Shown here: one piece after another, positions 416-18,397 of the stretch
How the letters are laid out: each line of letters begins with the position of its first letter
Numbering within the stretch: position 1 is the first letter of the stretch
Virus record (IMG/VR): IMGVR_UViG_3300030090_003678
Location: 56,945-76,944 of that record
Origin: an uncultured virus (IMG/VR IMGVR_UViG_3300030090_003678)
Lineage: Duplodnaviria > Heunggongvirae > Uroviricota > Caudoviricetes
Length of the DNA stretch: 20,000 nt
Direction: 5' to 3' (one strand)
Position numbers and translations under genes: made by a program
The notes under the pieces: generated by a model
The model's input: the letters and a program-made list of their open reading frames with translations, nothing else
The model's database searches: none
Told to the model about the DNA's origin: nothing

Positions 416-419
416 TCCT
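416..419 (-). promoter_or_regulatory. Shine-Dalgarno-like AGGA overlapping the TAG stop of the giant gene
   Basis: The minus strand reads TAGGATTAAAAAAATG; AGGA is 8 nt upstream of the ATG at 407. Confidence 0.55.
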
Positions 420-3400
420 ATTCGTGTATGTTTACATGCATTATTGAATCGCCATGTGTTCCGTACCTAAGTTCCATATCTTCAAAGTGTGGTCCTAGAT
501 AATGGGTCCAGCATTTTTCTTCGCATTGATGAAAGTTTAATGGACCTCTCTCATTGCAACATATCTGATCGAAACCTAAATAGAAATCCATATTTACTGG
601 TTTATTGCTATTGCCTTGTCTGCAATTATTTACCGGAGGTGGATATCCAATAATAATATCAAATGCTCCTCCATGCCTACTCCAAACTGCTCTCCAGTGA
701 GGATCTGCATATTCATTAAACTTTTCATTTTCTGCTTGTGGAGCATAAATAACTCCTTTAAAGTTTCTAGGAGCTAAACCTATTCCGACTTCGTGACCCA
801 TTAACATAGCTTCTGGAGACGATAATTCTAAGAACTTTTCTTTTTGAGTTATCAAGTTTAATTTTCTATCGTCAGCTGAATTTGCTACAGGTTTTCCAAG
901 ATACTTCACAGTACCCTTTACAATCTTAGTACATTCAGCAGGAGTCCTTACGTTCAAGGTGTTTCCACTACTATCAATACAAACAAATTCATTTATTATT
1001 TGTGTATCAATGGATGCTCCAAGAGTTAATCCTGCTTCTCCACATTCTTTCTTTGTTTTTTGTATAACTGGCCCAATAAACACTCCTGTTGGGCCGCACT
1101 CAGATGCTGTAACGCTTTCGGTTACTTCATTGCCATCAACTAAGTATATACATGTTCCAGCTTGGTCGTCACTAACATCTCTACATTCTTTGTATGGTCG
1201 GATTGATTCACATGAATCGCTCATATCACAAAGCCTAGCCATCTCCAAACTTTCCTGAGAGTCGTCAGGAACATAACTATCATCAGCAGGGAAATAAAAT
1301 GGGAACTGTTGATCCAACGTATTCAAGTCAACACACGTATCAAACACACTTGAATACGTAACATCTCTAACAGAACCGCATGTGTTTATCCACACGCCTT
1401 TTACCCAATCATAACCTCTTGATGTACAGGCAGTTTCGTTATCAATTTCGTAAAGGGTGCAGAAGTGTTGCTCGCAACCAGCTTTCGTGTCTACTTCTGA
1501 TGGAGGATCAGTAACTTCACCATTTGTATCTTCCCATTTAGTACCTTGTGGGAATTCACAACTTCCTAATCTGCTAGCTAGACCTCCTTCAGTTATCTTC
1601 TCTCCTTCTCCAAAGAATCCAGCATCTTTAGTAACCGTCTTTAATTTTTGTGATGGGTCATATTCCCAATCGCTTGCTTTTCCAAATCTAGGAGCTGGTT
1701 TATTTGCTTCAAGATTGCTTCTTAATTGAGATGCGTCATGAACAACCAACTCTAATTCATCATGAAGCGCAAACCTCGTCGCTGCTGTTACTGGCTCCCA
1801 CCAATGCCAGCCATTTTCTTTGCAGTCTTCCTTGTTGTCATATTTTGCATTTTGACAACCACGCTTTCTTACAACATAACTACCATCAGCTGGACCTCTA
1901 GGACATCTCATTTCCCTCTGTTCGTTGCCTGAGTCATCTTCATATTTTATTTCTACGCACTCAAAACATTGTCCTAGAGGGTTAGTTTTACTAGGAGGTT
2001 GACATGGATCTTGCAAATAGAACCCATTAATTTGACAGCCGACAGGACATCCTTCTACAAAGAAATCTTTTGCGTCTCCAGTTTTTTGTCCACCACTAAT
2101 TTCTAATGGTTTTAGATTTAATGGATCTTTGTATTTATACCCATCTTTTTCATCGTTTCGTCTTCCAATTACCCAATCGCCACCAAATATTCTTTCGCAT
2201 AAGAATTTGTCTCCATCCATTCCTAATGGACTTTCTGGGTCTCCAGTGTCTTCATATAATTGAACCCATTCTCCATTAGTTTGAAATTCAGCTAATCCTC
2301 CGGGAGTTACAGGGTTTGGTATTCCTCCAAATCCAACTCTATCACATTCATTTTTATCAGTAATAGGATCGCCATTAGAGTCTGTTATTCCTGTGTTTGT
2401 TGCTACATCTACACAAGCTCCTTCAGAACACTCATTTATGTCCATTCTGCTTACGTTCATGCCATAACGGTCATCAACACAGTATCCCATTCTTGTACCT
2501 TTGCAGGTGGCGGGATAAACTACGCTACCACTAATAACAACTTTTTCTGCATCAGCTAGGTCGTGGTCGTAGTGTGTAGCCACTTCTGTGTGCGAAAAAT
2601 GTGGTATCCAGAGATGTCCATTTCCAACACATGTTGAGTTATTTTTGTATGTATTATTTGTACAGAAGTAATCTTCATCTGAATAGATATTTTCAAATGC
2701 ATTAATCATGACTGGCTCAACTGGCAGTATCTCTGGAATTGGAGTGGTCATTCCTCCACCAGTATCTACCTCTTTGTACCTAAACATTCTATTCAGATTA
2801 TCAACGGTTGGTTTCGGACCAATTCTTCCCGGCTGTGTTATAGAACCAGTTGGATCTGTCCTTAAACTTTCAACATTAGATGGTCCCATAGGAACACCCT
2901 TTGGCCACATTGACATGTGTCTGCTAAGAGAAGAATGTGTCTGGTGATCGACCGGCCATGGATTCAAACCATATGGTTGGGGAAGCTCTAAATTCTGCTT
3001 CATGTTCATATAGTCAAAAGTAGTAGCCGATACTGGATTGCCGTTTTGGGTTCTTGTCCTATCGTAAATTCTAAGATGTCTATTTTTTCTAGGATTTTTT
3101 GTGATTAGCTTCGATACATCAGCAACCCTAATTTCCATATACTGACCGCTTCCACGACCCGCATCTCCATCTTTGTCTGGAATATTATCCCCTCTTGGGA
3201 TATCTGTATAGAGTATAGTTCCTCCAGCAGGTAAATATGGATTCCTTGATTTATTACTTCTGGAATAACTGCCAAATGTATCCGTTTCTGCTTGTTGTAA
3301 TTCTGCTAATCCAATACCAATCGGTGTGCCTTTTTCATAAGCGCAATGTCTGCCCCCAAACGTAGGTGGATAAGCAGGTATAACTAAAGTAGCCTCTCCT

Positions 3401-6400
3401 GTTTCTGGATCAACATCTTTAACATACCGAACGGTAAATTGCTCTGCTGGCTTGTTTGGAATTGGGTCAAATCCATACGATTGACATCTGTGACTTATAT
3501 CGCCACCAGTAGAACAAGCAACACCGCCGCTCCACAAAGGAGCGCGAATTGGTGGACTTCCTCCGCCTGTTCTGAAGGGGTAGTCTATTCCAGTGTATGT
3601 ACAACATTCCGTATCAACACATGCCCCACTTGGGCCACAATCATTTTTGGATATACATCTTCCAGCAAAAGTATATCTTCTTTCTAACGCACTAGGCTTT
3701 CCTGTTTTTCTCCAAGAGTCTCCGGTAATCAACCGTTTTGGTAAACATCCAATTAACCCTCCAGTATCGCAAGGTGGCACTCCCGTTACGCCATCAGTTA
3801 CGTTGTCAACCCTTAGACTCTCAGACCCCAAAAAAGATGTAAATGTACAATTTGTTATTTCTGCCCAAATTTCTAAACCATTTTGTCTATAGTTGTCTCC
3901 TCCATTAGGTCCAAACCCACCATCAACTATATCACCACTGTTATAAGCCGCCATTGAAGGTATAGAATTTCCACAGCCCATTACTAATCTAATAAAGTGA
4001 CCATCTTGTGGCAGACTAGGAGGTCTTGCATTTCTGAATACTAGGTCTGAACTTAGGCCATCTACTCGCACTCCGCCATTCATTCCTCCATATTGAGGCA
4101 TATCACAAGCGTTGCAGTCGGCATTTATTGCTACTAACTCATCTCCTGCTTTGAATGACGTATAGGGGCTAAAGTCTAAATTTGGTCCAGTTGGTTGGCA
4201 AGCTGAAGGCCATTTGAATCTATGCAAGCCTAAATCACATTGATGTGTACCAACTGTGTTCATTAAAGTCCACTCAGATCTCCAAACAACGCCATCATAT
4301 TCCATAGGGACATCTAAAGACTGTAATCCCGGACAAGTTTCATCTACAGGTTCATGGCTATTTGTATGGTCAACACAAGTTTCATCTGCCTCTGTTTGTA
4401 TATGGAGACCATAACATCCTGTATATGCATCATTATCATATCCTTCATCTCCATTTCCATTAACGTGACAAGTACCATCTCCAATGTCTTCAACGACTTC
4501 GGGTTCATATTTCATCTCAACAAAATTTGGATAACAAGAGCAAGGATCAAATGCCCAAATATATGCAGACTCAGGTGCATCTGAAACTTTAGTACATGTC
4601 GCTGTCAATGCTGAAGTGATCTGAACTACTTCCCCTACATTTTGGTCACCACAATTTTTCTCTTCTATCCCTGAACATGATTTTGCTTCTTTACATGGCA
4701 AATATGGATGTGAACAATTTCCTATAATATCGTTGTTATTGTCAGACACTAACGCTTCACAATAGGCATCTGCACAACAATCAGTTTCTTTGCCGTCTTT
4801 GTCTACTCCTATGTATTGTACTTGTGTGTTTCCTGTTTGACTAACAGTCTTCGTTTTGGATCGAGAGGTATAAACTGATGAACATTTTCTACAATTAGTT
4901 CCCCCACCCATGGTAGGTCTTTTTCTTAAAAACATATTACACTCAGAAACACCACCAGAGTGCGTTAAAGGAGTAAACGTTTCATCTTTACCATCACAAC
5001 CCTTTTTCCTCCATTTGAGGGTTTTAATCCGTCCACCATCTTCTGTGCATGTTCCAAATGTAATGTCAACATTATTTGGGTCTGCTATATGTCTTCTGAA
5101 CTCATCTTCGCATTCTGGCAAATCTCTAAGATCGCAAGGATGAAAAGTATCAGAACAACAATAACCTTCATTTTTTAATGCTTTTGCCGCATTGAAACTT
5201 TGGCTATCATCAGCAGTAGGAGCTTCACATTCATCCATGCCGCAGCCAATATAGTCTAATATCTCGCTAGATTGGCCAGTAACAGTTGCAACTAACTTGT
5301 TTGGCATAAAGTGGTCACAGCAAACAGGACATATTCCTTTTTGTTCTATTTGAACATAGTAATCATTTGCTCTTTCTTCCCATTTATATCCCGGACCGCC
5401 GAAACCAAATCTATATAGACTATCTATTTCATCATCTTCGTAATGTCCAATATACCCACCTTCAACACCAATATCTTCGTGATGTCCCCAATAATCAAAC
5501 TCTCCGGTGAATGGACATGTTTTATAAACACCAACACTCGGTTTTCCTTTACCTGAAGTAAGTTCACTACCAAGATCCAGTATGCCTAAATCGCCATACC
5601 AAGCTTGCGACCAACATGTCTTGAAAGGATCGTCATTATTTAAATCAACACAATCTGCATATCTTCCTTCAATAAACGTAGCGCCTTTAAACTCAAATCC
5701 ACTTTCTTCACAATCGGATTTGTTGTTTATTCCACCAACTACATCGCCATCGTAGTCATAACATTTTCCTTTACTTTCACATGCCTCTTTTTGTTCTTCT
5801 GTAGTTCCAGAATGAAGATCTTTGTCATTTAAAAGTTTTGCGTCAGCATCTTGACATCTATTAACATAAAGCTGGTTTTTGTGGTCTACATCAACGCTAG
5901 GGTCGTACATGGTATATACTTGCGCGAGTGCATCACAATCTTCTTTTTTCATAAATGCATTGGCGTTTGACTCGTATCCTAGCACTACAGTACAAGTACC
6001 ATATAAAGCACAATTTATTTCTGCTTCATTATCTGCGGTCTTTTCGTCATCTTCAAAAGTGTCATAGTTTCTCCAAGAAGTCGTCCATCTCTCAGCAAAG
6101 TCCGTACAGTCTGCTTTACTTTTTGGATTTCCGTTTTCGTCTAATGCACCAGTTTTATCTATGGTGTTAAAACATATACCAAGAGCATCACAATCTGCTT
6201 CCGCACAAGCCTTTCCTCCATCAGATTGCGTTTTATAACAAGTATGTTCTTCGTCTATTGGAGCGCCTGAAGCTTCACTATTTGTTATGGTATCGCCTGT
6301 TGGAATATGAGTAGACTTTCCATTATTTTGGAATGAGAGCTTGCCGGTATATGTATCTAAACAACGAAATTGTGCAGGTTCTTGAGATGGTATTCCCTTA

Positions 6401-9400
6401 TTTTCTGCCAGCTTTTTAGTGATCCAATTGACTTGTTCAGGCGCTTCTGCTGCACCCATACCAAGTCGATAGTTCATAATACAACCTTCTTCAACTTCCT
6501 CTACACATTCAGTTGTATCAATATTTGCTTTGTTTATTATCCTTCCATCTACTGGATACTTGTCGCATGTATATAAGTCGAATGTGTCTAATGTTACATT
6601 TTTAATAACAAAGAAGTCAGCTGGTGGAGGAATTTCACCATTAATTATTTCACCGGAACAAGCGTAGTATTTACTATCGCAACTGAGTTCCCATGTACCT
6701 CCGCCGCCTTCCCATACTCCACCACATCCCGGAGGGCCATCTGCATCATCTTTTACACAACCACACTCTTCTCCCGGAGCTTTATCTTGATCAACAGTAA
6801 ATCCTGAAGGACAGTTCCCATCATCATCCTGCATCTTGCATATATCGGCATCAGCTTCGCAATCAGTCTTTCTGTCACATACTGTTCCATCTTCTCTTTT
6901 CTTTGAACATTTTCCATACTCACACTCTAACTTACTTCCTGCATCAGTTGATGCGTCCCATTTATAAACAGGTCCAAGACAGTCCTTTTTCTCTAGATCA
7001 ACTTCTGAGTCGTCAGACAGTCTAATACATTTGCCTTGAGAATCGTCTAGGCAAGCAGACGTATACGGACATATAGAATCTGGCCATACTAAGTTTTCAC
7101 AATTTGGTCCGTCGCACGGGCTGTAAAGTTTATCTTCCCATTGCATCTCTTGCCAATCCTTCTGGTACATAACATTGGCAGCAAAATTGCCCATGACATT
7201 GTAGGTATGTACCAAGTCTCCATCTTTTAGCAAATGGTTCCTTGAAGTAATTTTGATTGGTTTTTCGTTGCTGGCATATTGGATTCGTTTGTGTTGCTTG
7301 ATTCCTAAGCAGTGGTCATTGACATAGCTAGCCATTTCTCCCTTTGGGAATAGACCAGTATCGTGCCAGTAACTCATTGAGTTGCCGATATCGTTTCCTT
7401 CTGATCCAAGAATTCTTCTTGAATATCCTCCTCCTACTTTGTCACTAAAACCTTTCTTTATACTACTTGTATCAACAAGTCCACTTGTTGAAGGTCCAGA
7501 AGGTCTGGCTTTAATGATTCCTTCCAGCTCTCTTAGCGGATAGCTTGAATCAGAACCTCCAACGCTAGCACCAGTCCAAGTATTATCCCCATCTCTACCG
7601 TTACAAGCTTCTTCTGTCTCATAATCTTGGATTAATGTACCGTCTTCTAGCAGACATTGACCTAGCTTTTTCCCTAATACGATATCTACGAAAGCTTCAG
7701 GTACTGGTTGAACTTGAGGACATTCTTGGTTTTCTGCAAGAGCAATGCCTGCTGGAGAACATCCGTCATTCCAATTTCCTTCAGCCCCTCCTTCATCCAT
7801 AGGCTTTACGCACTCTGCTTCGGTTTTTGCCTCTTCCCATATGGGAGTAGCTTGTTTTTCTACAACATCTTTGAAGTTTACTAGCTTTCTGCGATCACAT
7901 CCTTCAAACCATTCACAACAAATGTTGAAGTCTCCTCCTGAAGCTGCGCAATCTTCTGGCGTAGCGTGTTCAAAACTTCCATCAGCTGCAACACAAGAGC
8001 CTGTTTTTCCACAACTTGCTTTAGTTTGCTCTTCACATTCAGGGCAAGAAAGGTTATTCGTCCAGCCATCGAATGGAACCCAACCAACCCACATAGCACC
8101 ATTACCATAGCCGCAATCACCTCTTCTCAAGAAACCCACATGATCATCAACATATTTTTTAGCTTTTGTGGCTACTTCATTACAAAAGCCATCATATTTT
8201 TTTACTGCGATAGGACCCGGACCTGTAGTCATTTCATCCCATGCCATGAAATCATAATACATGAAATAATCTGGACCATAATTCCAGAACCAAGTACCAC
8301 CACCAGCCATATGCCCTAATACATAAGCAGTACATGCTTGCCAATATTTATGATGTGCAGCAGCTTGATCAGGGCCTTTAGCTCTATTTTGTTTTTCTTC
8401 CGTCGCTTTGAATGGTTGAGGTTGTATGTTGAACCCATAGAATGCATCAGCTCCTTTGGCATTCATCAACTCGCCAAAGTATTCTCCTTTGTTACTATTG
8501 TAGTAATGATACGCTTGACATTGATCCTTACCACCATCCGCAATACCATCATAGTTTGCATCAGGATAGGCGCACCAATGCTGATGTTGTATGCCTTCTA
8601 TAGCATCTCCCGGAAAATATCCTATTGGGCCTTTCATCGCAAGCGGAGGAGCAGATCCACCAGCGCCTTTTTGAAAAAGCTCATTTACTGGGTTGCCCAT
8701 TTGGTCTCCCATTTTAGGGTCCCACAAAGGCTGAGATTCTGGCCAACCAGAACGAAGCTGAGATTCTTTTCCGAGAGTTAGATTAAAGTTAGAACAATTC
8801 ATAAACTGATCTACAGGCAAAAAGAGCATCACCTCTTCTCCACATGTAGTATCAAAATAATTGTCTTGTTGTCCCTTTATATCGTATGGGTCTGGTCTAG
8901 GAACACCTTTTTCTAAGCAAGCACCCCAAAAGTTACAGGGACGTATTGTAAGAGTCCAATAGCTTTCACCATCTAAATGGAATAGAACTCTATCATTTTG
9001 GTTTCCTACTGATGTGCAAGTACCTTCTGCGCCAGTTTGCGGAGCGTTGCTTCCAGTAATAGTAGAAGGCGAAAGAATCACCTCTGAATAAGGAGTTATA
9101 CAAACAGTATTTTTTCTTGTGTTTGCTGCTCCACCAGATATTTGCGGAGTGTGAAAAGGATGATCTTCATCTAATAAAGTTTGTCCACAACAAGACTGGC
9201 GTTCATATTCCCAATCAACAAAATCGTAAGGAATGAAAACATTTGGATGCTTCCAAATCCTTTCGTCGATTTCAAGACATTCTTCTTCTGTAGCAACATC
9301 TCCTTCCCAAACATCGCCAAACGCACCACTATAACAACCAGCGTATACTTCTTCCCCAGAATAAAGAACACAATTTTCTTGAGTTTCATAATGCCAATCA

Positions 9401-10692
9401 TGAGTGTGGTGAAATCTAACTTCACAATCATATTGATTTAATGCGGGAAACTTTGTAGGAGTCCCATTGCTTGTTGTTGGTCTCTTAAGACATGCTGGTT
9501 CTATGAGCTGATCTCTAACTGTAGGCTCACCATCTTTAGGAGAATAACAAAGACCTCTTAAGGTACATTCTTCTTTATCATCAAGAAGCCAAGTTGCACC
9601 AGAACTTTCACAAGTAGATTCATCTTTATCAGGGTTAGTACAAAAGGCTTCAACTTCAGTAGCATCAAATGGATGTCTACACCAAGGCTCTTTCTTTAAA
9701 GGTACAGCCCCATCTTCAAAGCAAGCGCTTTCTTTATTTGCTCCAGATCCATGGACTGCATTGTAAGAGCTATGAGCATAATACCCTTCAGGAGTAACGA
9801 ATATTCTACGTTCTCTTGCTTTTATATTTATTAGTGCGTCAGCTTTATTTTCAGAGAAGTGTGTTTTTTGTAGGTTTGTCCCTTTTAGGTCTACTAATCT
9901 TTGTCCAGCTCTGTCTTCTACATTGTTATTTGTGACATTTGGATCATTCTCACTCCAAAGACCATTTATATCTATACAGTCGTCTTCTGTAGTTATCCCA
10001 TAATTAGGGACTCCATTTACATCCCAGCAAATAGGTCTTTCTCCATCTCTGACGGATGAATTCAGCATGTCTGTTCCGCCACCGGGAAGCATTACGCCAT
10101 AGACTTCTGGTATCATCCAAGCATCAGCACCTCTTCTAGGCCAGTTATCTCCTTGTAGCGCTTTGTCGTAATCGAAATCATCTCTTACTTGAAATCCATC
10201 TCCTACTTGTTTATCAGAATCAAGTGTCACATATTTATTGTTTGCGTAATGGCACTCAGAAGGTTTGCCATTAGGAAGAGTAGTTACCTTACATGGATCA
10301 CAAGCATAACTTAATGTATCAGTCGCTGTTTGACTACAACATCTGCTACCTCTCCAAGCGCCATTAGAATATTTAAGATGGTAGGTTTCTCCTGCTCCAC
10401 CTTCTATTCCTGCACGAGCTTGATATCTTCCATCAGGAGTTCTAATAATAGTAACAGCTATTTCTGGAGGTAGCTGACATTTTGCTCCAGCTAGGTTGTC
10501 GCAATAAGTGTCTATACAGCCACAGCCCTCAGTGCAAAAACGACCGCCTCTCCTATCTTTCAAAGATAGAGGGTCGTCCTGAGCTGTATCATCAGAAGCG
10601 TCTGGCCACCAAGATTTCTTGCCAGTTCTTTGATTTCTTAGGTTTGGATAATAGGGATTATAGGAGGAATCCCAAGGATCACCAATTGCCAT
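418..10692 (-). CDS. Giant (3424 aa) cysteine-rich, acidic putative virion appendage/tail-fibre-like protein with two interrupted E1-FCCH-like domains and many nested two-Cys modules
   Basis: 10.3-kb uninterrupted ORF. The ATG overlaps the upstream TAA (TAATG, 10690-10694), with AGGA 5 nt upstream; TAG stop at 418-420. No signal peptide or obvious TM segment. Lies downstream of the hub-like gene. The ORF is secure; the product is inferred. Confidence 0.9.
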   Translation of the reverse strand: MAIGDPWDSSYNPYYPNLRNQRTGKKSWWPDASDDTAQDDPLSLKDRRGGRFCTEGCGCIDTYCDNLAGAKCQLPPEIAVTIIRTPDGRYQARAGIEGGAGETYHLKYSNGAWRGSRCCSQTATDTLSYACDPCKVTTLPNGKPSECHYANNKYVTLDSDKQVGDGFQVRDDFDYDKALQGDNWPRRGADAWMIPEVYGVMLPGGGTDMLNSSVRDGERPICWDVNGVPNYGITTEDDCIDINGLWSENDPNVTNNNVEDRAGQRLVDLKGTNLQKTHFSENKADALINIKARERRIFVTPEGYYAHSSYNAVHGSGANKESACFEDGAVPLKKEPWCRHPFDATEVEAFCTNPDKDESTCESSGATWLLDDKEECTLRGLCYSPKDGEPTVRDQLIEPACLKRPTTSNGTPTKFPALNQYDCEVRFHHTHDWHYETQENCVLYSGEEVYAGCYSGAFGDVWEGDVATEEECLEIDERIWKHPNVFIPYDFVDWEYERQSCCGQTLLDEDHPFHTPQISGGAANTRKNTVCITPYSEVILSPSTITGSNAPQTGAEGTCTSVGNQNDRVLFHLDGESYWTLTIRPCNFWGACLEKGVPRPDPYDIKGQQDNYFDTTCGEEVMLFLPVDQFMNCSNFNLTLGKESQLRSGWPESQPLWDPKMGDQMGNPVNELFQKGAGGSAPPLAMKGPIGYFPGDAIEGIQHQHWCAYPDANYDGIADGGKDQCQAYHYYNSNKGEYFGELMNAKGADAFYGFNIQPQPFKATEEKQNRAKGPDQAAAHHKYWQACTAYVLGHMAGGGTWFWNYGPDYFMYYDFMAWDEMTTGPGPIAVKKYDGFCNEVATKAKKYVDDHVGFLRRGDCGYGNGAMWVGWVPFDGWTNNLSCPECEEQTKASCGKTGSCVAADGSFEHATPEDCAASGGDFNICCEWFEGCDRRKLVNFKDVVEKQATPIWEEAKTEAECVKPMDEGGAEGNWNDGCSPAGIALAENQECPQVQPVPEAFVDIVLGKKLGQCLLEDGTLIQDYETEEACNGRDGDNTWTGASVGGSDSSYPLRELEGIIKARPSGPSTSGLVDTSSIKKGFSDKVGGGYSRRILGSEGNDIGNSMSYWHDTGLFPKGEMASYVNDHCLGIKQHKRIQYASNEKPIKITSRNHLLKDGDLVHTYNVMGNFAANVMYQKDWQEMQWEDKLYSPCDGPNCENLVWPDSICPYTSACLDDSQGKCIRLSDDSEVDLEKKDCLGPVYKWDASTDAGSKLECEYGKCSKKREDGTVCDRKTDCEADADICKMQDDDGNCPSGFTVDQDKAPGEECGCVKDDADGPPGCGGVWEGGGGTWELSCDSKYYACSGEIINGEIPPPADFFVIKNVTLDTFDLYTCDKYPVDGRIINKANIDTTECVEEVEEGCIMNYRLGMGAAEAPEQVNWITKKLAENKGIPSQEPAQFRCLDTYTGKLSFQNNGKSTHIPTGDTITNSEASGAPIDEEHTCYKTQSDGGKACAEADCDALGICFNTIDKTGALDENGNPKSKADCTDFAERWTTSWRNYDTFEDDEKTADNEAEINCALYGTCTVVLGYESNANAFMKKEDCDALAQVYTMYDPSVDVDHKNQLYVNRCQDADAKLLNDKDLHSGTTEEQKEACESKGKCYDYDGDVVGGINNKSDCEESGFEFKGATFIEGRYADCVDLNNDDPFKTCWSQAWYGDLGILDLGSELTSGKGKPSVGVYKTCPFTGEFDYWGHHEDIGVEGGYIGHYEDDEIDSLYRFGFGGPGYKWEERANDYYVQIEQKGICPVCCDHFMPNKLVATVTGQSSEILDYIGCGMDECEAPTADDSQSFNAAKALKNEGYCCSDTFHPCDLRDLPECEDEFRRHIADPNNVDITFGTCTEDGGRIKTLKWRKKGCDGKDETFTPLTHSGGVSECNMFLRKRPTMGGGTNCRKCSSVYTSRSKTKTVSQTGNTQVQYIGVDKDGKETDCCADAYCEALVSDNNNDIIGNCSHPYLPCKEAKSCSGIEEKNCGDQNVGEVVQITSALTATCTKVSDAPESAYIWAFDPCSCYPNFVEMKYEPEVVEDIGDGTCHVNGNGDEGYDNDAYTGCYGLHIQTEADETCVDHTNSHEPVDETCPGLQSLDVPMEYDGVVWRSEWTLMNTVGTHQCDLGLHRFKWPSACQPTGPNLDFSPYTSFKAGDELVAINADCNACDMPQYGGMNGGVRVDGLSSDLVFRNARPPSLPQDGHFIRLVMGCGNSIPSMAAYNSGDIVDGGFGPNGGDNYRQNGLEIWAEITNCTFTSFLGSESLRVDNVTDGVTGVPPCDTGGLIGCLPKRLITGDSWRKTGKPSALERRYTFAGRCISKNDCGPSGACVDTECCTYTGIDYPFRTGGGSPPIRAPLWSGGVACSTGGDISHRCQSYGFDPIPNKPAEQFTVRYVKDVDPETGEATLVIPAYPPTFGGRHCAYEKGTPIGIGLAELQQAETDTFGSYSRSNKSRNPYLPAGGTILYTDIPRGDNIPDKDGDAGRGSGQYMEIRVADVSKLITKNPRKNRHLRIYDRTRTQNGNPVSATTFDYMNMKQNLELPQPYGLNPWPVDHQTHSSLSRHMSMWPKGVPMGPSNVESLRTDPTGSITQPGRIGPKPTVDNLNRMFRYKEVDTGGGMTTPIPEILPVEPVMINAFENIYSDEDYFCTNNTYKNNSTCVGNGHLWIPHFSHTEVATHYDHDLADAEKVVISGSVVYPATCKGTRMGYCVDDRYGMNVSRMDINECSEGACVDVATNTGITDSNGDPITDKNECDRVGFGGIPNPVTPGGLAEFQTNGEWVQLYEDTGDPESPLGMDGDKFLCERIFGGDWVIGRRNDEKDGYKYKDPLNLKPLEISGGQKTGDAKDFFVEGCPVGCQINGFYLQDPCQPPSKTNPLGQCFECVEIKYEDDSGNEQREMRCPRGPADGSYVVRKRGCQNAKYDNKEDCKENGWHWWEPVTAATRFALHDELELVVHDASQLRSNLEANKPAPRFGKASDWEYDPSQKLKTVTKDAGFFGEGEKITEGGLASRLGSCEFPQGTKWEDTNGEVTDPPSEVDTKAGCEQHFCTLYEIDNETACTSRGYDWVKGVWINTCGSVRDVTYSSVFDTCVDLNTLDQQFPFYFPADDSYVPDDSQESLEMARLCDMSDSCESIRPYKECRDVSDDQAGTCIYLVDGNEVTESVTASECGPTGVFIGPVIQKTKKECGEAGLTLGASIDTQIINEFVCIDSSGNTLNVRTPAECTKIVKGTVKYLGKPVANSADDRKLNLITQKEKFLELSSPEAMLMGHEVGIGLAPRNFKGVIYAPQAENEKFNEYADPHWRAVWSRHGGAFDIIIGYPPPVNNCRQGNSNKPVNMDFYLGFDQICCNERGPLNFHQCEEKCWTHYLGPHFEDMELRYGTHGDSIMHVNIHE
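1765..2706 (-). other. E1-FCCH-like beta domain 2, split by three Cys-rich insertions
   Basis: The segments INAFEN / HTEVATHYDHDLADAEKVVISGS / ADGSYVVRK / VTAATRFAL occur in canonical order, separated by inserts at 2667-2608, about 2514-1897 and 1860-1801. Confidence 0.55.
6571..7284 (-). other. E1-FCCH-like beta domain 1, split by a 185-aa Cys-rich insertion
   Basis: The N-half IQYASNEKPIKITSRNHLLKDGDLVHTYNVMGNFAAN (7284-7174) and C-half DFFVIKNVTLDTFDLY (6618-6571) join into the familiar I..ASN..PI.IT...HGL..GD.V.I..V.GN..ANG.F.I..VT.DTF.L pattern of FCCH-like domains (Pfam E1_FCCH-like) in phage proteins. Confidence 0.7.
6958..7035 (-). repeat. 26-codon module, copy A (GKCIRLSDDSEVDLEKKDCLGPVYKW) in the 3424-aa gene
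   Basis: Ungapped 18/26 aa and 54/78 nt identity (hand count) to 15857-15934. Confidence 0.85.
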
Positions 10693-10701
10693 TATATTCC
10701 T
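10690..10701 (-). promoter_or_regulatory. TAATG stop/start overlap with upstream AGGA (translational coupling)
   Basis: The minus strand reads CAGGAATATAATG: AGGA at 10701-10698, TAA at 10694-10692, ATG at 10692-10690. Confidence 0.65.
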
Positions 10702-12506: not shown

Positions 12507-12517
12507 TTTTCTACCTA
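12507..12517 (-). promoter_or_regulatory. 11-nt intergenic spacer with second stop codon and SD-like AGGT
   Basis: The minus strand reads TAATAGGTAGAAAAATG; AGGT is 6 nt upstream of the ATG at 12506. Confidence 0.5.
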
Positions 12518-15500
12518 TTAATCTTTCTGGTATTGACCTATTCCTCTTTTGACTCTTTCCATTTGCTCTTCTGCTCTAGAAAGTCTTTGCATTATGTCTG
12601 ACTGTGACTTTCTTATTCTGTCTTCATAAAGCTTTCCTAAGTCTCCGAACTTTCTTTGGGTAGAGAAGCTATAGCTAGTTGTCAATCCGTTACTTCCAAC
12701 TCTCAAACTCACATCAGTAATATAAGGACCTTTAATTTCCTCTCCACTACTGTCGAAATAAGTCAGTTGTGTTCCAAATGCATAAGCTGGTATTCCAACT
12801 AGTTCAATAGAACCTGTTTCTATAACTCTATTTTCGCTTTGGCCAATAACTGTTTCTATTCTAGACATTGCCACATCTCCCATTTGAGTTTCTCCACCAA
12901 ATGCGGCTGGGTGTAATCCATCGTCAGTAGAAAATTCAGTTTTTCCATATGCTTCAAGTCCAGCAGCCCAAGGACCCCATCTATAGTGTTTGCTTTGTTG
13001 TGGTATAGCAGCGTGCCAAGGTTTATATGCAGCAGCAACAAAAGAGCCTTTTCCCATATCAGGGCCTAAGTTAGGCGCATACTTGCTTCTAGCTTGCATA
13101 GCTATCAGTTGTTGTGCTGTAACTCCTTGAGGTAATAAACCATTCAACCAAGCCCCTAATAAGAAGTTTGAGTTTCCTCCTTTAGTAAGAGGAAGACACA
13201 TTTCATTTTTATTACCTCCGCAAGAATTCATTAATGGATGAGCCATATCAATATCTGGATAAAATGCTCGATTTGCTAGAGTCACTAGTGCATAAGGTTT
13301 ATATGCAGCAAATTCATTGGTCTGCTCACTACCTGTGTTATCTATCTCGTTTTCTCTGATATATACAGGACGCGTTTTTAATTCTGTTTGTGTACCATCA
13401 ATTTCACTGCCTATTTTTAAATACTCTTCGGATGCGGCATGGTCGATGCTACTTCCATCTACCTTAGCGTCATCTCCACATCTATAACGGAAATATTGCT
13501 CTTCATGATGAATCTCCCAGTCTGGTCTTTCTTTTAGCCAGTGTGTTTTTGCATCAACTTCAGCAGCCACAAATACCTTTTTTCCCCAATTATCATCAGG
13601 GCCAACTTTGCTTACAGGTTCTACATGCATGGTTTCTGCATCAAAATCTCTGAAGTCTAATATCTTAGAGTCTTGTGTTGCTCGCCTATAATCTTTTTCT
13701 GGGAATATAACAAAGGACTTTAGATTTCCTTCTTCCGTCCAGAAATTCATATTCTGAGGATATCCAGTATTGGCATTTTTAGAGTCTGGTGTACCAAAGT
13801 TAAACTCAATATCTCCACCGGGCCAAGCTCCATTAGTTGCTATTTCCCATCTGTTAATTTCCTGTATTGGTTCGATCCATTTTTCTCTAGCAATTATTTC
13901 GCATGTGTATTTGTCTGGACTCACTCCATCAGTACAGCGACCAATGCCTTGTTTAGCAAACCATTCACTTAATAAACCATGGACACCCCAATCGAATCCA
14001 GCATCTTCACATTGAGTTTGATCCTCGTATTTGGGATTTGTGCAATGTACTGTAGAAGGTGGATTAAAAGGTAAAGGCACTAGATACTTCTTGCCATAGA
14101 AGTTGTCTGCAACATCTTTTATCTTTTTATAAACCATCTCAATTTCCATTGACGTTGCTTGGAACAATGTCAAAGAAGTTGTTCTTGGCTTATCTCCACA
14201 AACAAAACCAGAAATGCTTTGCGCCTCTTCAGTGTCGGCATTGCTTTCGTCAGTAATACCAGTAGAAGCCATCGGTGGAGGACTTGAGTTACCCCAAGCA
14301 ACTAATACTTTTGCTGCTTCAAGAGTTGTTTGACTTTTACCTCCATGAATTACTACTTCATCTTTAGCTGGACATAAGTCACCCCAAGCATTTGATGGCT
14401 CAGGTGTTTTTTCATAAAACCAACAAGGCATGTATGGCTGTAGGGTTTTTACAAAAATCTTCCAAGAATCTATACTCTGAGCTGCATGTCTGAGTTCAGT
14501 CACAGTTGCATAATAAAACTCATCATATCTTTTTGCAGGGTCATTTATAGAAGATTTAGGGCCTCCTTTATATGGAGTATTCCCTAAATCAATAGGTATA
14601 GTTGACGTTCTACATACAAGAGGAAGGCCAATACCAGTATTCAAATCGACTGGCTTGTAATGCACTTCGTTTTGGCTACCGCCATTATCTTGATCGTAAC
14701 AGTCTCTTTCTGTTTCTATGTCCTCATTGTTTGGTGGATCTTTTGGGTCTTGTTTTTCTCCATCACTATCACGAACTTGCCTACACACACCCTTTAGCCT
14801 AATTCTAGGTTGTGTATATCCGGGAGCTGGATTGTCTTTTGACTCAATTACCCTACCAGTAAAGTCATCAGTAAACTGAGGGCCATAATCAAAAGTGCTA
14901 ACAAGCGTCCACTCTGCTTTTCCGGGATATTTTGTTTTGCAATCTCTTGGTGTAGCAGCATCAGTCCAATCGCCTTTATGAAATAAAACCTTTCCTTTAT
15001 CGTTTTCTATGTCTTCAGTGGCTTCACACCTACTATCAAATGGATTTCTATATGATACCGCTTTACATCCGGGACTATATAAACTTCCTCCACTTTCAAA
15101 TTGGTTCATATCTGCTGGATCAAATCCAGAAGGAAGAGCATCTCCATTAGCATCTATTTCAAAGGAAGATCTAGCTTCAGGAGTTGCAAGAAGATTTCCA
15201 CTGTCTGTACAGTCTGCTGGACTTCCAACGAACTTAATAAACCCACTTTCAGTGTTAACTTCCCATTTAGGATCATTGAATGTAGCAGCTTCTCCAGCTT
15301 TCTTTTCAAACCCTCCTTCTTTGAAGTCTTTCGCATAGTAGGCTACTATAGCACTTCCTTGAGGGTCTCCGTTTCCGTCTTCTGCAAAACAAGCGTGTTG
15401 ACAAGCCCATGCATTTTCACCAACATTATTTTCAGGACCAACAATATCTTCATGCATCTTAGAAGATATATCTACATTGTTCTTATCTCTACACGCACCC

Positions 15501-18397
15501 CAATTGATACACCAAGGTCGCCATTTATATTGTTTCAGATCCCCAGCTTTCTTTACGGCGCAGTCGGAGTCTGGTGGATTTACTTCTGGTCTAGGATCAC
15601 ATTCGCAAATAAACTTTAAGTTTTCATAATCTTCATTAGCTTGTCCTGTAGCTAATTCCTCACAGATTCCTAAAGACGGATTAAAAAACTCAATCCCACT
15701 AAAAATACCTTCAGTAGGGTGAAAGTCTCTATAAGGATCATCATCATTGAAAAATCCCTTGATTGGATTTCCTCTAACGCTTAGATCAACAATGTCGTTA
15801 TAAACATTGTCTGCTGCAATTGACTGAGGATCTGCTGGAGTCCAACTCCCTACAACCCATTTGTAAGTAGGACCAAGACAACTGTCTTTTTCTACGTCTA
15901 CTACTGAGTCATCGGCAGTCTTGATACATTTTCCATTTTCTTCTTTTTCACATTCCTCTTGTGTCTTAAGACCTCCCTCAGAACATGAACCTTGTGCAAC
16001 AGCACCACCTTTAACAAGCTCTATGGTTTCATATCCCCAGCATGGATATAGATCTAGATAGCCTGAGTCTGTGGAGTGTTTTTTTGTCCAAATTCCAGAT
16101 GCGTCAAGGCATAGTTTCTCAGTATCAGGATACTCCCAATTACCTCCTTTATCTGCGCATTCTGTAGCATTAGTTGGTCCAGCTACAACTTCTGGATCTT
16201 TTTTTGGAGGGCTAATTTTTAAACATGCTTTTACATCACAATCACCTGCATTAAGCTGATGCTTTGAGTTGAGTCTATTTAACTGATAGGGATTAAATCC
16301 ACCATCTTGTTTGAAATCTTGTGGCCAATACCAAGGCAAATAATTATCATTGCTTACAGGAGGCAAATTTCTTTCAAAGTCTGGGTAGTCTAGCGTCTCT
16401 TTGTCCGAGTATATTCCTTGTTTTCCATAAGGATTCCATCTCAACTTATTACTGTCTGAAGGAAACTCATCTTTAGGGAATTCTTGATTTATAAGAGTAA
16501 CGCCATCATCTTCAACGTGTGGCAAGAACTCTGTTAAAATCGAGTCTACTCCTTCTGTTGGTGCTGGATCTTCATCAGTTACATCTTCAGTTGTCCAGAC
16601 ATGATTTGCTTGAGCTTCGCAATCAGCTTTATTTGTATAGGAAGGAGCCTTATCTCCATTACCATCTACACAATAAGATTCAGTGTTTGTTTTATCAAAA
16701 TACTTTCCAGTAGTTTGATTGTAGAAAGTATCTTTTCTTACATTGACATCTCCTAAAGGTGTAACACCAATGACTCTTGTTCTAGGCGCACCAAGGACCA
16801 TCTTGCCTTCAATAGGATCTGTAAATTCATAACCTAAGTTGGCACTTACTAAAGTTGGGTTATTTTGATTATCTACAAAAGGCCCTTCTGGAGGTGTCTT
16901 TTGTGACAGATCAACTGCATCCCCAATAGAACCACGAGTGATTGTTGTCGTTCTTGGGATAGGAACAACTTTTATGATTCCAGAATAATTTTTAACATCC
17001 GGCCATTCTTCAGGTTCAATAAACCCATCTTTGATTAGATTTTTGGTTATAGGGCTTAATGTTACATAAAAATCAGCTCCTACAACCGCGCAAGCTTCTT
17101 CTATTAAAGATAAAAGGCTTGCTGTATCTCCAGAGATTCTCCAATCATTTGGTATCAAACCTTCTTCGTCTCCTGAAGACGAAGATGAACTAGAACTTGC
17201 TATATCTGAAGACTTAGAACTGAACTTAAAAAAATCAGTTAGGTCAACTAGATATCTATGTATATGCCAGCTTTCTGGATTGCCATCTTCATCTAATTTT
17301 ACTGCGCCTGCTTCGTCTTTTATAGATGCGGAGTTTAATATGCTTTGAGATGGATTTACATTTCTAGTGTCTCTGCTGTAGTGTAAGGGTCCGCCAAATG
17401 GTTCAAATTCTTCAATGTAATTCGTGTCTTTGCCACTTAACATATTTGCAAGTGCGCCCAAAATACCAAAAGCATGTTTTCTTTTTGGTGCTTGCTTATC
17501 TTCGTCAAGACTTGGGTTGTAATCTCCAAACTTGTTAATGAATTGTTTATTTGGATTATTCCAAATCATTCCGGCTTCTGTAATATCAGATTTGTTAAAC
17601 CCGTGATATTCGTAGTACCCAAACACATTTATTATGTTGTAATACCCATTCCATCCTTTTTCGTATTCTCTTCCTGAATCTTCGATTCTATACGCATCAG
17701 CAGGAGATGTTCTTGCAGCAAATTTGTTAAGTACAACGATTGTATTTTCGAGTATTGATCTTGGGTCTGCAATTTCTACCGTGTAGGTTTCTCCAGCAGT
17801 TGAAAACTTTTTATCGTACTTTGTTAAAATTCCCGGAAAAGAGAACACAGTGTTACAAGTAAGAGCGCCATCTTTTAAGACTCCATCATCATCATAATCT
17901 CTTTTTACGCAGTCTTGTATTAAGTCTCTTCCGCTGTAGTAATTAAAAAAGACAGGAGATCCCGGATCAGGAATAAAAGGAATGTCTCCATGAGTGGAGT
18001 AGAGTTTTCCCATTCCTTTATCTGGATCTGATGGGTTGTCTTCGTTCTCTAGATTGTGCAATCTTAAAAGATCAATAGGAAACGCATTAGGATCATTAGG
18101 GTGATAACCTTCAGAAACGGCATCTCTAGTACCAGAGGGAGTTAAGTAAGTTTCAAAATTAACTTCGTCTCTTACTAAATTAACGCTAAGACTAGAACTG
18201 TTACTACCCAAGCCTAAATTTGCAGAAAAATCCATAATCGACAAACCTAAGAAAGTTTGCTGAAAGATTTCTGGATTATTAACATAGTCAGTTATTGCTG
18301 AGGCGTATTTGTCCCAAGACCCACCATTAGCTGTACAATCAGCCTCATTTTTATACTGAGGTTTGCTACATTTATTTACATCTTTATTAGGAGCCAT
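12518..18397 (-). CDS. Large (1959 aa) putative baseplate hub / tail-tip protein expanded by Cys-module insertions
   Basis: Long ORF, TAATG-coupled to the upstream gene, ending in a double stop TAA TAG. The N-terminal beta pattern (SIMDFSANLGLGSNSSSLSVNLV...FPGILTKYDKKFSTAGETYTVEIADPRSIL), the helical SLLSLIEEACAVVGADFYV and the C-terminal TGSIELVGIPAYAFGTQL...YITDVSLRVGSNGLTTSYSF resemble the layout of gp27/GpD/Tal-type hub proteins. It ends in a coiled-coil-like tail. The family call is by-eye pattern recognition. Confidence 0.85.
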   Translation of the reverse strand: MAPNKDVNKCSKPQYKNEADCTANGGSWDKYASAITDYVNNPEIFQQTFLGLSIMDFSANLGLGSNSSSLSVNLVRDEVNFETYLTPSGTRDAVSEGYHPNDPNAFPIDLLRLHNLENEDNPSDPDKGMGKLYSTHGDIPFIPDPGSPVFFNYYSGRDLIQDCVKRDYDDDGVLKDGALTCNTVFSFPGILTKYDKKFSTAGETYTVEIADPRSILENTIVVLNKFAARTSPADAYRIEDSGREYEKGWNGYYNIINVFGYYEYHGFNKSDITEAGMIWNNPNKQFINKFGDYNPSLDEDKQAPKRKHAFGILGALANMLSGKDTNYIEEFEPFGGPLHYSRDTRNVNPSQSILNSASIKDEAGAVKLDEDGNPESWHIHRYLVDLTDFFKFSSKSSDIASSSSSSSSGDEEGLIPNDWRISGDTASLLSLIEEACAVVGADFYVTLSPITKNLIKDGFIEPEEWPDVKNYSGIIKVVPIPRTTTITRGSIGDAVDLSQKTPPEGPFVDNQNNPTLVSANLGYEFTDPIEGKMVLGAPRTRVIGVTPLGDVNVRKDTFYNQTTGKYFDKTNTESYCVDGNGDKAPSYTNKADCEAQANHVWTTEDVTDEDPAPTEGVDSILTEFLPHVEDDGVTLINQEFPKDEFPSDSNKLRWNPYGKQGIYSDKETLDYPDFERNLPPVSNDNYLPWYWPQDFKQDGGFNPYQLNRLNSKHQLNAGDCDVKACLKISPPKKDPEVVAGPTNATECADKGGNWEYPDTEKLCLDASGIWTKKHSTDSGYLDLYPCWGYETIELVKGGAVAQGSCSEGGLKTQEECEKEENGKCIKTADDSVVDVEKDSCLGPTYKWVVGSWTPADPQSIAADNVYNDIVDLSVRGNPIKGFFNDDDPYRDFHPTEGIFSGIEFFNPSLGICEELATGQANEDYENLKFICECDPRPEVNPPDSDCAVKKAGDLKQYKWRPWCINWGACRDKNNVDISSKMHEDIVGPENNVGENAWACQHACFAEDGNGDPQGSAIVAYYAKDFKEGGFEKKAGEAATFNDPKWEVNTESGFIKFVGSPADCTDSGNLLATPEARSSFEIDANGDALPSGFDPADMNQFESGGSLYSPGCKAVSYRNPFDSRCEATEDIENDKGKVLFHKGDWTDAATPRDCKTKYPGKAEWTLVSTFDYGPQFTDDFTGRVIESKDNPAPGYTQPRIRLKGVCRQVRDSDGEKQDPKDPPNNEDIETERDCYDQDNGGSQNEVHYKPVDLNTGIGLPLVCRTSTIPIDLGNTPYKGGPKSSINDPAKRYDEFYYATVTELRHAAQSIDSWKIFVKTLQPYMPCWFYEKTPEPSNAWGDLCPAKDEVVIHGGKSQTTLEAAKVLVAWGNSSPPPMASTGITDESNADTEEAQSISGFVCGDKPRTTSLTLFQATSMEIEMVYKKIKDVADNFYGKKYLVPLPFNPPSTVHCTNPKYEDQTQCEDAGFDWGVHGLLSEWFAKQGIGRCTDGVSPDKYTCEIIAREKWIEPIQEINRWEIATNGAWPGGDIEFNFGTPDSKNANTGYPQNMNFWTEEGNLKSFVIFPEKDYRRATQDSKILDFRDFDAETMHVEPVSKVGPDDNWGKKVFVAAEVDAKTHWLKERPDWEIHHEEQYFRYRCGDDAKVDGSSIDHAASEEYLKIGSEIDGTQTELKTRPVYIRENEIDNTGSEQTNEFAAYKPYALVTLANRAFYPDIDMAHPLMNSCGGNKNEMCLPLTKGGNSNFLLGAWLNGLLPQGVTAQQLIAMQARSKYAPNLGPDMGKGSFVAAAYKPWHAAIPQQSKHYRWGPWAAGLEAYGKTEFSTDDGLHPAAFGGETQMGDVAMSRIETVIGQSENRVIETGSIELVGIPAYAFGTQLTYFDSSGEEIKGPYITDVSLRVGSNGLTTSYSFSTQRKFGDLGKLYEDRIRKSQSDIMQRLSRAEEQMERVKRGIGQYQKD
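15857..15934 (-). repeat. 26-codon module, copy B (GKCIKTADDSVVDVEKDSCLGPTYKW) in the 1959-aa gene
   Basis: Ungapped 18/26 aa and 54/78 nt identity (hand count) to 6958-7035. Confidence 0.85.
17174..17197 (-). repeat. Poly-serine (S8) low-complexity tract in the 1959-aa protein
   Basis: ...SSKSSDIASSSSSSSSGDEEG..., encoded by mixed AGT/TCT/TCA/TCG codons. Confidence 0.8.

Follow-up and report, generated by a model that had tools for sequence, protein, structure and literature searches.

A two-cysteine mini-domain nested within its own copies in large proteins of an uncultured virus

The window considered here is a stretch of 20,000 nucleotides from an uncultured virus of the Caudoviricetes (positions 56,945 to 76,944 of IMG/VR record IMGVR_UViG_3300030090_003678). 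With it ends the viral contig G000, which has a length of 76.9 kb and is rated 51% complete. The window encodes four proteins, P1 to P4, the contig stopping within P4. P1 and P3 contain a short module with two cysteines (Cys1 and Cys2), and an earlier note made from the sequence alone had claimed that whole copies of this module sit inside other copies. The locus thus raises the question of whether so small a unit has been inserted repeatedly into itself, and what the nests would form. P1 and P3 are probably tail-tip proteins with a mini-domain that has been repeatedly inserted into its own loops, and the nests may form disulfide-stapled fingers.

Nested modules in P1 and P3

A loose pattern finds 62 compact copies of the module in the window and its relatives. 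After removal of look-alikes in P2 and one misaligned row, 56 are left, and their consensus is G-x-C, a loop of 7–22 residues, and [N/D/T]-[E/K]-x-[D/E]-C-x3-G-G-x-W. The regular expression for compact copies matches seven times in P1 and three times in P3, compared with means of 0.79 and 0.13 in 200 shuffles each. With a threshold of 5 bits, the hidden Markov model (HMM) of the 56 copies matches P1 six times and P3 four times, compared with shuffle means of 0.005 and 0 (200 shuffles each). There are biases beyond the regular expression: glycine two residues before Cys1 (0.32), N, D or T four residues before Cys2 (0.79 together), E or K three residues before it (0.58), and the second glycine after it (0.38). 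An HMM of the C-terminal half recovers only the copies already known. At the DNA level, the matches within the window are short and of chance size, indicating that there is no repeated DNA element.

The five peptides on which the claim of nesting was built are letter-for-letter translations of the minus strand, all in the frame of the open reading frame (ORF) at 418–10692, and they lie where they were said to lie (1390–1566, 1021–1191, 5674–5859, 6691–7056, and 7909–8046). The description of the copies as mostly not tandem is fair, the window being without a head-to-tail array and its copies being isolated or nested. As the earlier note had it, whole copies lie within copies at two places: between the two cysteines (site A), and between Cys2 and the closing G-x-W (site B). 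At site B of P1 1613–1673, the complete inner module 1642–1668 is found three residues past C1638, in the turn from the helix to the last strand. In P1 3043–3101, the inner module 3076–3096 (16.4 bits) is found two residues past C3073, again at site B. Site A is filled in P1 3170–3224 and in P3 720–770, and both sites are filled in the double nest P1 1213–1334. Its site A holds the 26-aa module 1220–1245, and its site B holds a unit starting with G-x-C at 1260 (C1262–W1327, eight cysteines, closing with C-G-G-V-W).

The module 898–922 in P1 is enclosed in another manner. The six cysteines around it (883, 886, 894; 925, 926, 932) are not module-like, and its excision leaves a junction score of 0.6 bits only. 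In P1 883–932, these cysteines are arranged as C-P-E-C ... C-C-x5-C around the module, and the C-x-x-C spacing might mark a metal site instead of disulfides.

The comparison of homologues is stronger evidence for nesting than the excision statistics given below. Fourteen non-redundant P1 homologues of 3079–3897 aa were used, of which loci supplied four and a protein search, after removal of near-duplicates, supplied ten; W denotes P1 of the window phage, and G001 and P0005 are its 88–95% identical relatives. Of their 65 module matches, 19, which occupy 12 sites, are cleanly missing in one or more of the homologues. Three of these 12 empty sites are spanned by a compact module of at least 5 bits, up to 23.8 bits, in a family where HMM-detectable modules cover 3.9% of residues (p = 0.0097), and a fourth has a nested look by eye. 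Inner units therefore show the exact presence and absence that an alignment of homologues had been proposed to reveal. This presence and absence varies between phages whose scaffold is 43–58% identical, and module gain and loss is seen in P3 and P4 as well as in P1.

The two-level nest at P1 1613–1673 is common to all lineages, and the counterpart of W 1642–1668 has zero, one or two further modules in the inner loop across homologues. P0012 contains one more module there and P0013 two more, which makes four levels; the segment in P0013 consists of three opening cysteines and then three closing C-x3-G-x-x-W units, all within the outer unit. The counterpart of W 1214–1334 is seen in three states, compact, singly filled and doubly filled. 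It is a plain compact module of 8.3 bits in G005, most homologues contain the site-B unit only (66–75 residues with eight cysteines, after Cys2), and the site-A module is found only in W, G001, and P0005. The compact module P1 349–368 is an empty site, at which G002, G005, P0014, and P0016 contain a whole additional module two residues past the second cysteine. At the counterpart of P1 3238–3264, the loop has one or two additional modules in G005, P0014, and P0016. The entire nest P1 3043–3101 is restricted to W and its close relatives.

Two of these units have further features. The outer-unit loop at P1 1613–1625 (window 5818–5856) contains the string C-x-D-x-D-G-N-x-D-N-S, which is conserved in homologues and presumably resembles calcium-binding loops. 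The eight-cysteine unit P1 1262–1327 (window 6712–6909) has module-like ends, but the six more cysteines in its loop cannot be read as modules. Two cysteines of this unit, C1285 and C1310, covary (0.83), and the unit is absent in G005 and present in the closely related P0015.

Modules are also present in P4 of relatives. In the P4 homologue of G005 (L026:11260–13539), residues ~295–345 contain a module-like insert ending with T-S-G-T-C-A-E-A-G-G-I-W, where the window P4 is gapped, implying that a module was gained or lost in the fourth tail gene too.

In the excision test, a module is cut out and the sequence is rescanned for a module match of at least 5 bits across the junction. Three of the nine excisions in the window give such a match: P1 1642–1668 (6.0 bits), P1 3076–3096 (7.6 bits), and P3 723–754 (8.2 bits, over model positions 1–27). 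Across six lineages, represented by twelve P1 and P3 sequences without the near-identical G001, the number is 11 of 51, compared with 30 of 1530 at random positions (p = 3.8e-9). If the junction match must score 4 bits more than each flank does by itself, it is found in 9 of 51 excisions, compared with 139 of 2550 junctions of swapped flanks (p = 0.0016). A control with shifted excisions was discarded; when the cut is moved, one half of the real module stays next to the junction, and up to 45 of 48 matches are trivial. The statistical support for nesting from excision is real but moderate.

The HMM-detectable modules make up ~4% of residues, so that the nests grow out locally from a large conserved scaffold and are not the bulk of the protein. 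The words "recursively branched" and "dendritic", used when the nests were first noticed, are thus too strong for this coverage in the P1 family and for a window that reaches two levels, four being seen only in a relative.

Predicted structure, cysteines and known counterparts

AlphaFold2 was applied to P1 1606–1686 (alignment of 13 sequences) and P1 3152–3268 (12 sequences), and the models were read as secondary structure and confidence. In the first model (predicted local distance difference test (pLDDT) 82.3), the outer strand 7–9 and the outer helix 26–34 (C1638) are followed by an inner block of strand 37–40, helix 53–58, and strand 62–65, and then by the outer strand 67–69. In the second model (pLDDT 87.7; predicted template modelling score (pTM) 0.77), pLDDT is above 90 across most of 3172–3211. 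Here, the outer strand 16–21 (C3170) is followed by the inner strands 27–34 and 37–44, helix 45–48, and strand 53–55. After this inner block come a short strand, the outer helix 63–73 (C3217), and the compact third module P1 3238–3264 (strand 85–88, helix 100–106, strand 110–113). The order of the elements indicates that sites A and B are two turns of a strand-strand-helix-strand unit, so that both insertion sites are placed in loops, as the earlier note would have it. The predicted secondary structure and pLDDT fit inner and outer units that would each fold separately, with the insertion in a surface loop.

Cysteine is the best conserved residue of the P1 homologues, with a mean conservation of 0.96, compared with 0.48 for all residues, and 147 of the 155 cysteine columns assessed are at least 80% conserved. 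In the region of P1 3170–3224, all eight cysteines are invariant in 12 sequences. The covariation of C886 and C926 is perfect, as P0009 and P0011 have lost both, and this pair encloses the module 898–922. Based on this enclosing pair and the 96% conservation, a disulfide between Cys1 and Cys2 would be plausible, with outer-outer and inner-inner pairing and adjacent termini.

The module profile was compared with 177,635 PDB sequences. The top match is borderline and lies at residues 138–163 of T4 gp8 (E = 0.011, 19.1 bits; PDB 1N7Z; Pfam PF09215), and there is a second baseplate wedge match, 9F4A (E = 0.11). Up to E = 10, the PDB matches include no chain of T4 gp10. The gp8 segment resembles the module in all framework residues, which align as G-x-C, T-D-K-D-E-C, x3, and G-G-x-W-T. 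Like P1 and P3, gp8 is a tail or baseplate protein, but it contains one copy within a larger fold, without repeats or nesting. Neither P1 nor P3 is homologous to gp8, and gp8 is not among the matches of Foldseek and VIA searches with the whole nested models. No description of the module or of self-nesting cysteine units was found in the literature searched, and none of the passages that a word search finds in the T4 tail review PMC3004832 deals with the gp8 segment.

The profile was also run on 1.84 billion representative proteins, of which it matches 225 at E <= 0.001 and 17 at E <= 1e-10. In the 41 of these that were scanned, no Pfam family covers the module. Their companion Pfam domains include the prepilin N-terminal motif (5), PKD (3), Listeria-Bacteroides repeats (2), a phage tail-tip domain (1), and Phage-Gp8 (1). 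P0055, a module-bearing database protein, matches positions 139–176 of PF09215 (26.8 bits, cut-off 25), and three database proteins match Pfam Gp10_D3 only below the threshold. The suggestion that this repeat architecture is not a described one can be kept, within the databases and literature searched, for the nesting and for the lack of a family model, but the single module occurs in T4 gp8 and in 225 protein clusters.

Domain insertion is known, and self-insertion is rare; examples are the split PH domain of myosin X (PH1N-PH2-PH1C) and SBHM in SI3 of RNA polymerase. As in the P1 nests, a contiguous inner domain lies in a loop of a split outer domain, with the same fold in those cases. Unlike the P1 nests, they are single fixed events of large domains, whereas the unit of P1 has ~25 residues, is repeated up to four deep (P0013), uses two insertion loops, and varies among close relatives. 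The "evolved" Dit and Tal of lactococcal and related phages are tail-tip proteins with inserted binding modules. They are similar to P1–P4 in their position downstream of the tape-measure gene and in loop insertions that differ among related phages, but the inserts are carbohydrate-binding domains of ~100 residues or more, inserted once.

EGF-like, Kazal, and laminin-type EGF repeats with an inserted domain are small extracellular repeats framed by cysteines. EGF and Kazal mini-domains are like the module in size and in their cysteine frame, and insertion in the disulfide loop is possible; they have six to eight cysteines, whereas the module has two and another motif. None of EGF-like, Kazal, and DUF4215/Myxococcus cysteine-rich repeat matches P1–P3 (Pfam, E up to 0.1) or covers the module in the 41 proteins. 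Kazal-type rows in Foldseek are weak and non-significant.

Feature coordinates and tail context

Table 1. Coordinates of the genes, nests and modules. Positions are those of the window unless G000 is indicated.
Feature	Position (nt)	Strand	Protein and residues	Description	Basis
P1	418–10692	−	3424 aa, 165 Cys	Holds most modules and nests	ORF translation
P2	10692–12506	−	604 aa	Sits between the giants P1 and P3	ORF translation, homologue alignment
P3	12518–18397	−	1959 aa, 41 Cys	Modules and two nests	ORF translation
P4	18397–19998	−		Cut off by window end	
Compact divergent module	901–981	−	P1 3238–3264		Alignments, AlphaFold2
Nest	1021–1185	−	P1 3170–3224	Outer C3170...C3217; inner 3179–3205 in first hairpin turn (site A)	
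Nest	1390–1566	−	P1 3043–3101	Outer C3045...C3073, close V-K-G-V-W	
Compact module	1801–1863	−	P1 2944–2964	15.7 bits	
Compact module	2608–2670	−	P1 2675–2695	15.9 bits	
Nest	5674–5856	−	P1 1613–1673	Outer C1613...C1638, close K-G-A-T-F	
Double nest	6691–7056	−	P1 1213–1334	Outer C1214...C1257, close E-G-G-G-G-T-W	
Inserted lineage-specific module	6958–7035	−	P1 1220–1245	C-L-G-P-x-Y-K-W subtype	
Enclosed module	7897–8046	−	P1 883–932	Module 898–922, 12.7 bits	
Compact module	9589–9648	−	P1 349–368	9.8 bits; empty site	
Compact module	13988–14050	−	P3 1450–1470	21.6 bits; kept in all six P3 homologues	
Apparent nest	15842–15985	−	P3 805–852	Outer C805...C816, close V-V-G-S-W, around module 822–847	By eye
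Nest	16088–16240	−	P3 720–770	Outer C720...C763; inner 723–754 in site A, 14.7 bits	
Compact module	18314–18376	−	P3 8–28	N-terminus; 22.0 bits; in G002 and G003, not in G004–G006	
Glycosyltransferase/epimerase/O-methyltransferase regions	G000, ~5.4–7.7, 17–19.7, 40.5–48.2, and 50.9–55.9 kb				

The relative G005 places the genes of the window in a larger order: tape-measure protein (2522 aa), a 960-aa protein, the P4 homologue, P3, P2, and P1. Its tape-measure gene matches phrog_4211 and phrog_28, and the P4 homologue, a 759-aa protein (BLASTP E = 2e-100, 37% identity), is two genes downstream of it. A peptidase M23 domain (Pfam PF01551) is found on P0018, a distant P1 homologue, which suggests cell-wall degradation by some P1-family members. 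The Atlas clusters nearest P3 that bear names are tail families (score 0.88), which is a lead only. Based on the homologues that follow the tape-measure gene, the peptidase of P0018, and the Atlas lead, P1–P4 are considered as tail-tip proteins, and a virion-surface location fits this gene position. There, the nests may serve the receptor binding, shielding or mimicry that the earlier note suggested. The best explanation is that the source phage has a genome of ~150 kb and that P1 and P3, both of great length and rich in cysteine, belong to the virion. Tape-measure protein length usually follows tail length, and the 2522-aa protein of G005 (L026:800–8368) would correspond to a very long tail if this rule applies.

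P1–P4 match no Pfam, PHROG or NCBIfam families at the thresholds used, and P1, P2, and P3 match no Pfam family even at E up to 0.1. The Dit, Tal, fibre, and carbohydrate-binding models in Pfam and PHROG give no match to P1–P4. P2 and P3 matched nothing by tblastn against 50,697 phage records, the Atlas search gave no usable match for P2, and names are absent among the cluster members of P0008, a P1 homologue. In P2, 13 cysteines are kept in every homologue, and the canonical module is absent in scans with the module pattern and the HMM.

Outside the window, G000 encodes on the opposite strand ribonucleotide reductase, helicase, primase, split DNA polymerase, and recombinase, and it also encodes PhoH, Clp protease, and a sigma factor. 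Two adjoining thioredoxin-fold genes of 98 and 99 aa are found at G000 16394–16690 and 16694–16993 (Pfam PF00085, E = 1e-12 and 1e-10). This pair may serve ribonucleotide reductase or may have to do with how oxidised the cysteine-rich tail proteins are. The set of genes for glycosyltransferases, nucleotide-sugar epimerases, and O-methyltransferases is unusually large for a phage, and glycosylation of the virion or of the host surface by this set is possible. A DUF1501 protein (G000 2774–4030), a membrane dipeptidase (M19; 13927–15186), and a SET-domain protein (23663–24010) are also encoded, all of which are uncommon in phages.

Competing readings and meaning

The growth of P1 and P3 by self-insertion could be outlined as follows. 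The mini-domain is a unit of 21–35 residues, predicted to be strand-strand-helix-strand. Its first strand contains Cys1, preceded by G-x, its helix contains Cys2, preceded by [N/D/T]-x-x-[D/E], and a G-G turn leads to the last strand, which ends with Trp or Phe. Two of its loops tolerate insertions, the first hairpin turn (site A) and, two to five residues past Cys2, the turn that joins the helix to the last strand (site B). During the evolution of the phage lineage, further copies of the unit, as well as some other cysteine-rich pieces, would have entered these sites in frame, and copies would also have been placed between modules and within non-module sequence. As an outcome, five to seven places of the window have nests of two levels, the relative P0013 reaches four levels, and loci of related phages differ by whole units. 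Once the particle is in oxidising water, each unit might be closed by its own Cys1–Cys2 disulfide. The nests might project from the tail tip as stapled fingers, and their turnover might serve host contact or particle stability.

Several results weigh against this outline. With the simple criterion, swapped flanks give junction matches in 317 of 2550 cases (12.4%), compared with 21.6% of true excisions (p = 0.046), because one flank often holds most of a module. Two of the three junction matches in the window are confined to the model's C-terminal half (positions 13–27 and 10–27), since the outer units match the model partly due to their long loops. A strict full-length iterative parse of the window gives no second-round matches, as the HMM of compact copies penalises the long loops of outer units. 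Of what the earlier note expected from excising and rescanning, the new junction matches thus appeared above controls, in the window and in the family, but a full-length match in a second round of the window did not. Among 149 unrelated module-bearing proteins, 19 of 336 excisions give a match, compared with 3.9% of 1670 controls. Nesting thus occurs in them but is rare. This excess over controls is not clear, and some of the matches come from head-to-tail copies sharing one residue, so frequent nesting is a trait of the P1/P3 family and not of the module.

At P3 805–852, where the outer unit scores 0.7 bits only, G002 and G003 contain the counterpart of the inner unit without the outer unit, and G004–G006 contain neither. 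Simple insertion into a pre-existing outer unit therefore does not account for this locus. The number of cysteines is odd in 12 of 18 P1 homologue sequences, implying that at least one cysteine per chain is unpaired, metal-bound or interchain, and that not all are paired within the chain. The strand of C3170 adjoins the strand of C3181 in sequence, so that sequential pairing is compatible with the secondary structure. Phage tail assembly takes place in the reducing cytoplasm. Fold searches with the nested models gave nothing significant (Foldseek against PDB and wide VIA searches, and viral structures for model 2). The best Z is 3.6 (KP6 toxin) for model 1, P1 1606–1686, and no chain reaches Z 2 for model 2, P1 3152–3268.

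The alternative that survives best accepts the nests and considers them mechanical. They would be cross-braces that both stiffen and protect a very large tail-tip complex in oxidising water, and their turnover would be neutral tolerance of insertions where loops permit them. The small share of residues in modules (3.9%) agrees with this, as do the high conservation of cysteines throughout the protein and not just in modules, the T4 counterpart in a structural wedge protein, and module surfaces without conserved residues beyond the framework. On the other side, variation in the presence of units at 43–58% scaffold identity is typical of host-contact parts, and the module is found elsewhere in pilin-like, PKD, and Listeria-Bacteroides-repeat surface proteins, although neither is a functional test. 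A purely mechanical role is a possibility that falls short of being probable.

Another alternative keeps the nested order and drops the stapled finger: the cysteines would pair sequentially, bind metal or stay reduced, and the module would be a plain folding motif. The predicted models give secondary structure only, the motif is also found in T4 gp8, which is assembled in the cytoplasm, most homologues have an odd number of cysteines, and residues 883–886, within the set at 883–932, have the C-x-x-C spacing. However, a unit inserted into a formerly compact unit would force re-pairing under sequential pairing, and C886 and C926 covary across an inner module. Besides, small database proteins (P0097, P0036) contain two or more copies with cysteines confined to the modules, for which pairing within the unit is simplest. 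This alternative is thus considered doubtful.

That there is no true nesting, but only cysteine-rich proteins with isolated modules and degenerate half-modules, read as parentheses from many Cys and G-x-W strings, is very improbable, because the yield of swapped flanks, the weak and partial matches of outer units, the iterative parse without addition, and the lack of excess in unrelated proteins are outweighed by compact modules that score up to 23.8 bits at the very points at which other homologues have an inserted module, by the graded 0/1/2 series at single loci, by the excision test with the gain criterion (p = 0.0016), and by intact inner units between outer elements in the AlphaFold2 models, confidently predicted across most of 3172–3211.

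Repeated self-insertion with stapled fingers being the preferred reading, a further step can be speculated on. The P1 module 1220–1245 has its closest relative in the P3 copy at 15857–15934, to which it is identical at 17 of 26 residues. The DNA of P1 6958–7035 and P3 15857–15934 is alike across the module, and the flanks are not. Based on the close relationship of the P3 copy and the lineage-specific P1 copy, the module might be a mobile cassette at the protein level, with in-frame copies moving from one tail gene to another and into loops of copies already present; this is tentative and somewhat unlikely. If it were true, the fingers of the tail tip would grow and be remodelled in a combinatorial way, like exon shuffling, with changes in host contact. 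Recursive protein growth would then have a natural scaffold in a small domain whose termini are adjacent and two of whose loops permit insertion.

Domain insertion is already known; what sets this case apart is that a unit of ~25 residues, an unannotated module, is inserted repeatedly into its own copies. Self-insertion of so small a unit is absent from the family databases and the literature searched, and intermediate states are preserved among related phages. If the cysteines pair within units as proposed, a tiny disulfide-closed unit would serve as a recursive scaffold, which would be of interest for protein evolution and for the engineering of mini-domains that can be grafted into loops. 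It would also give a profile and a name to a widespread unannotated module of 225 protein clusters, including pilin-like and other bacterial surface proteins. For abundant uncultured phages of marine type, the nests would mark those parts of giant tail-tip proteins that vary and that probably face the host.

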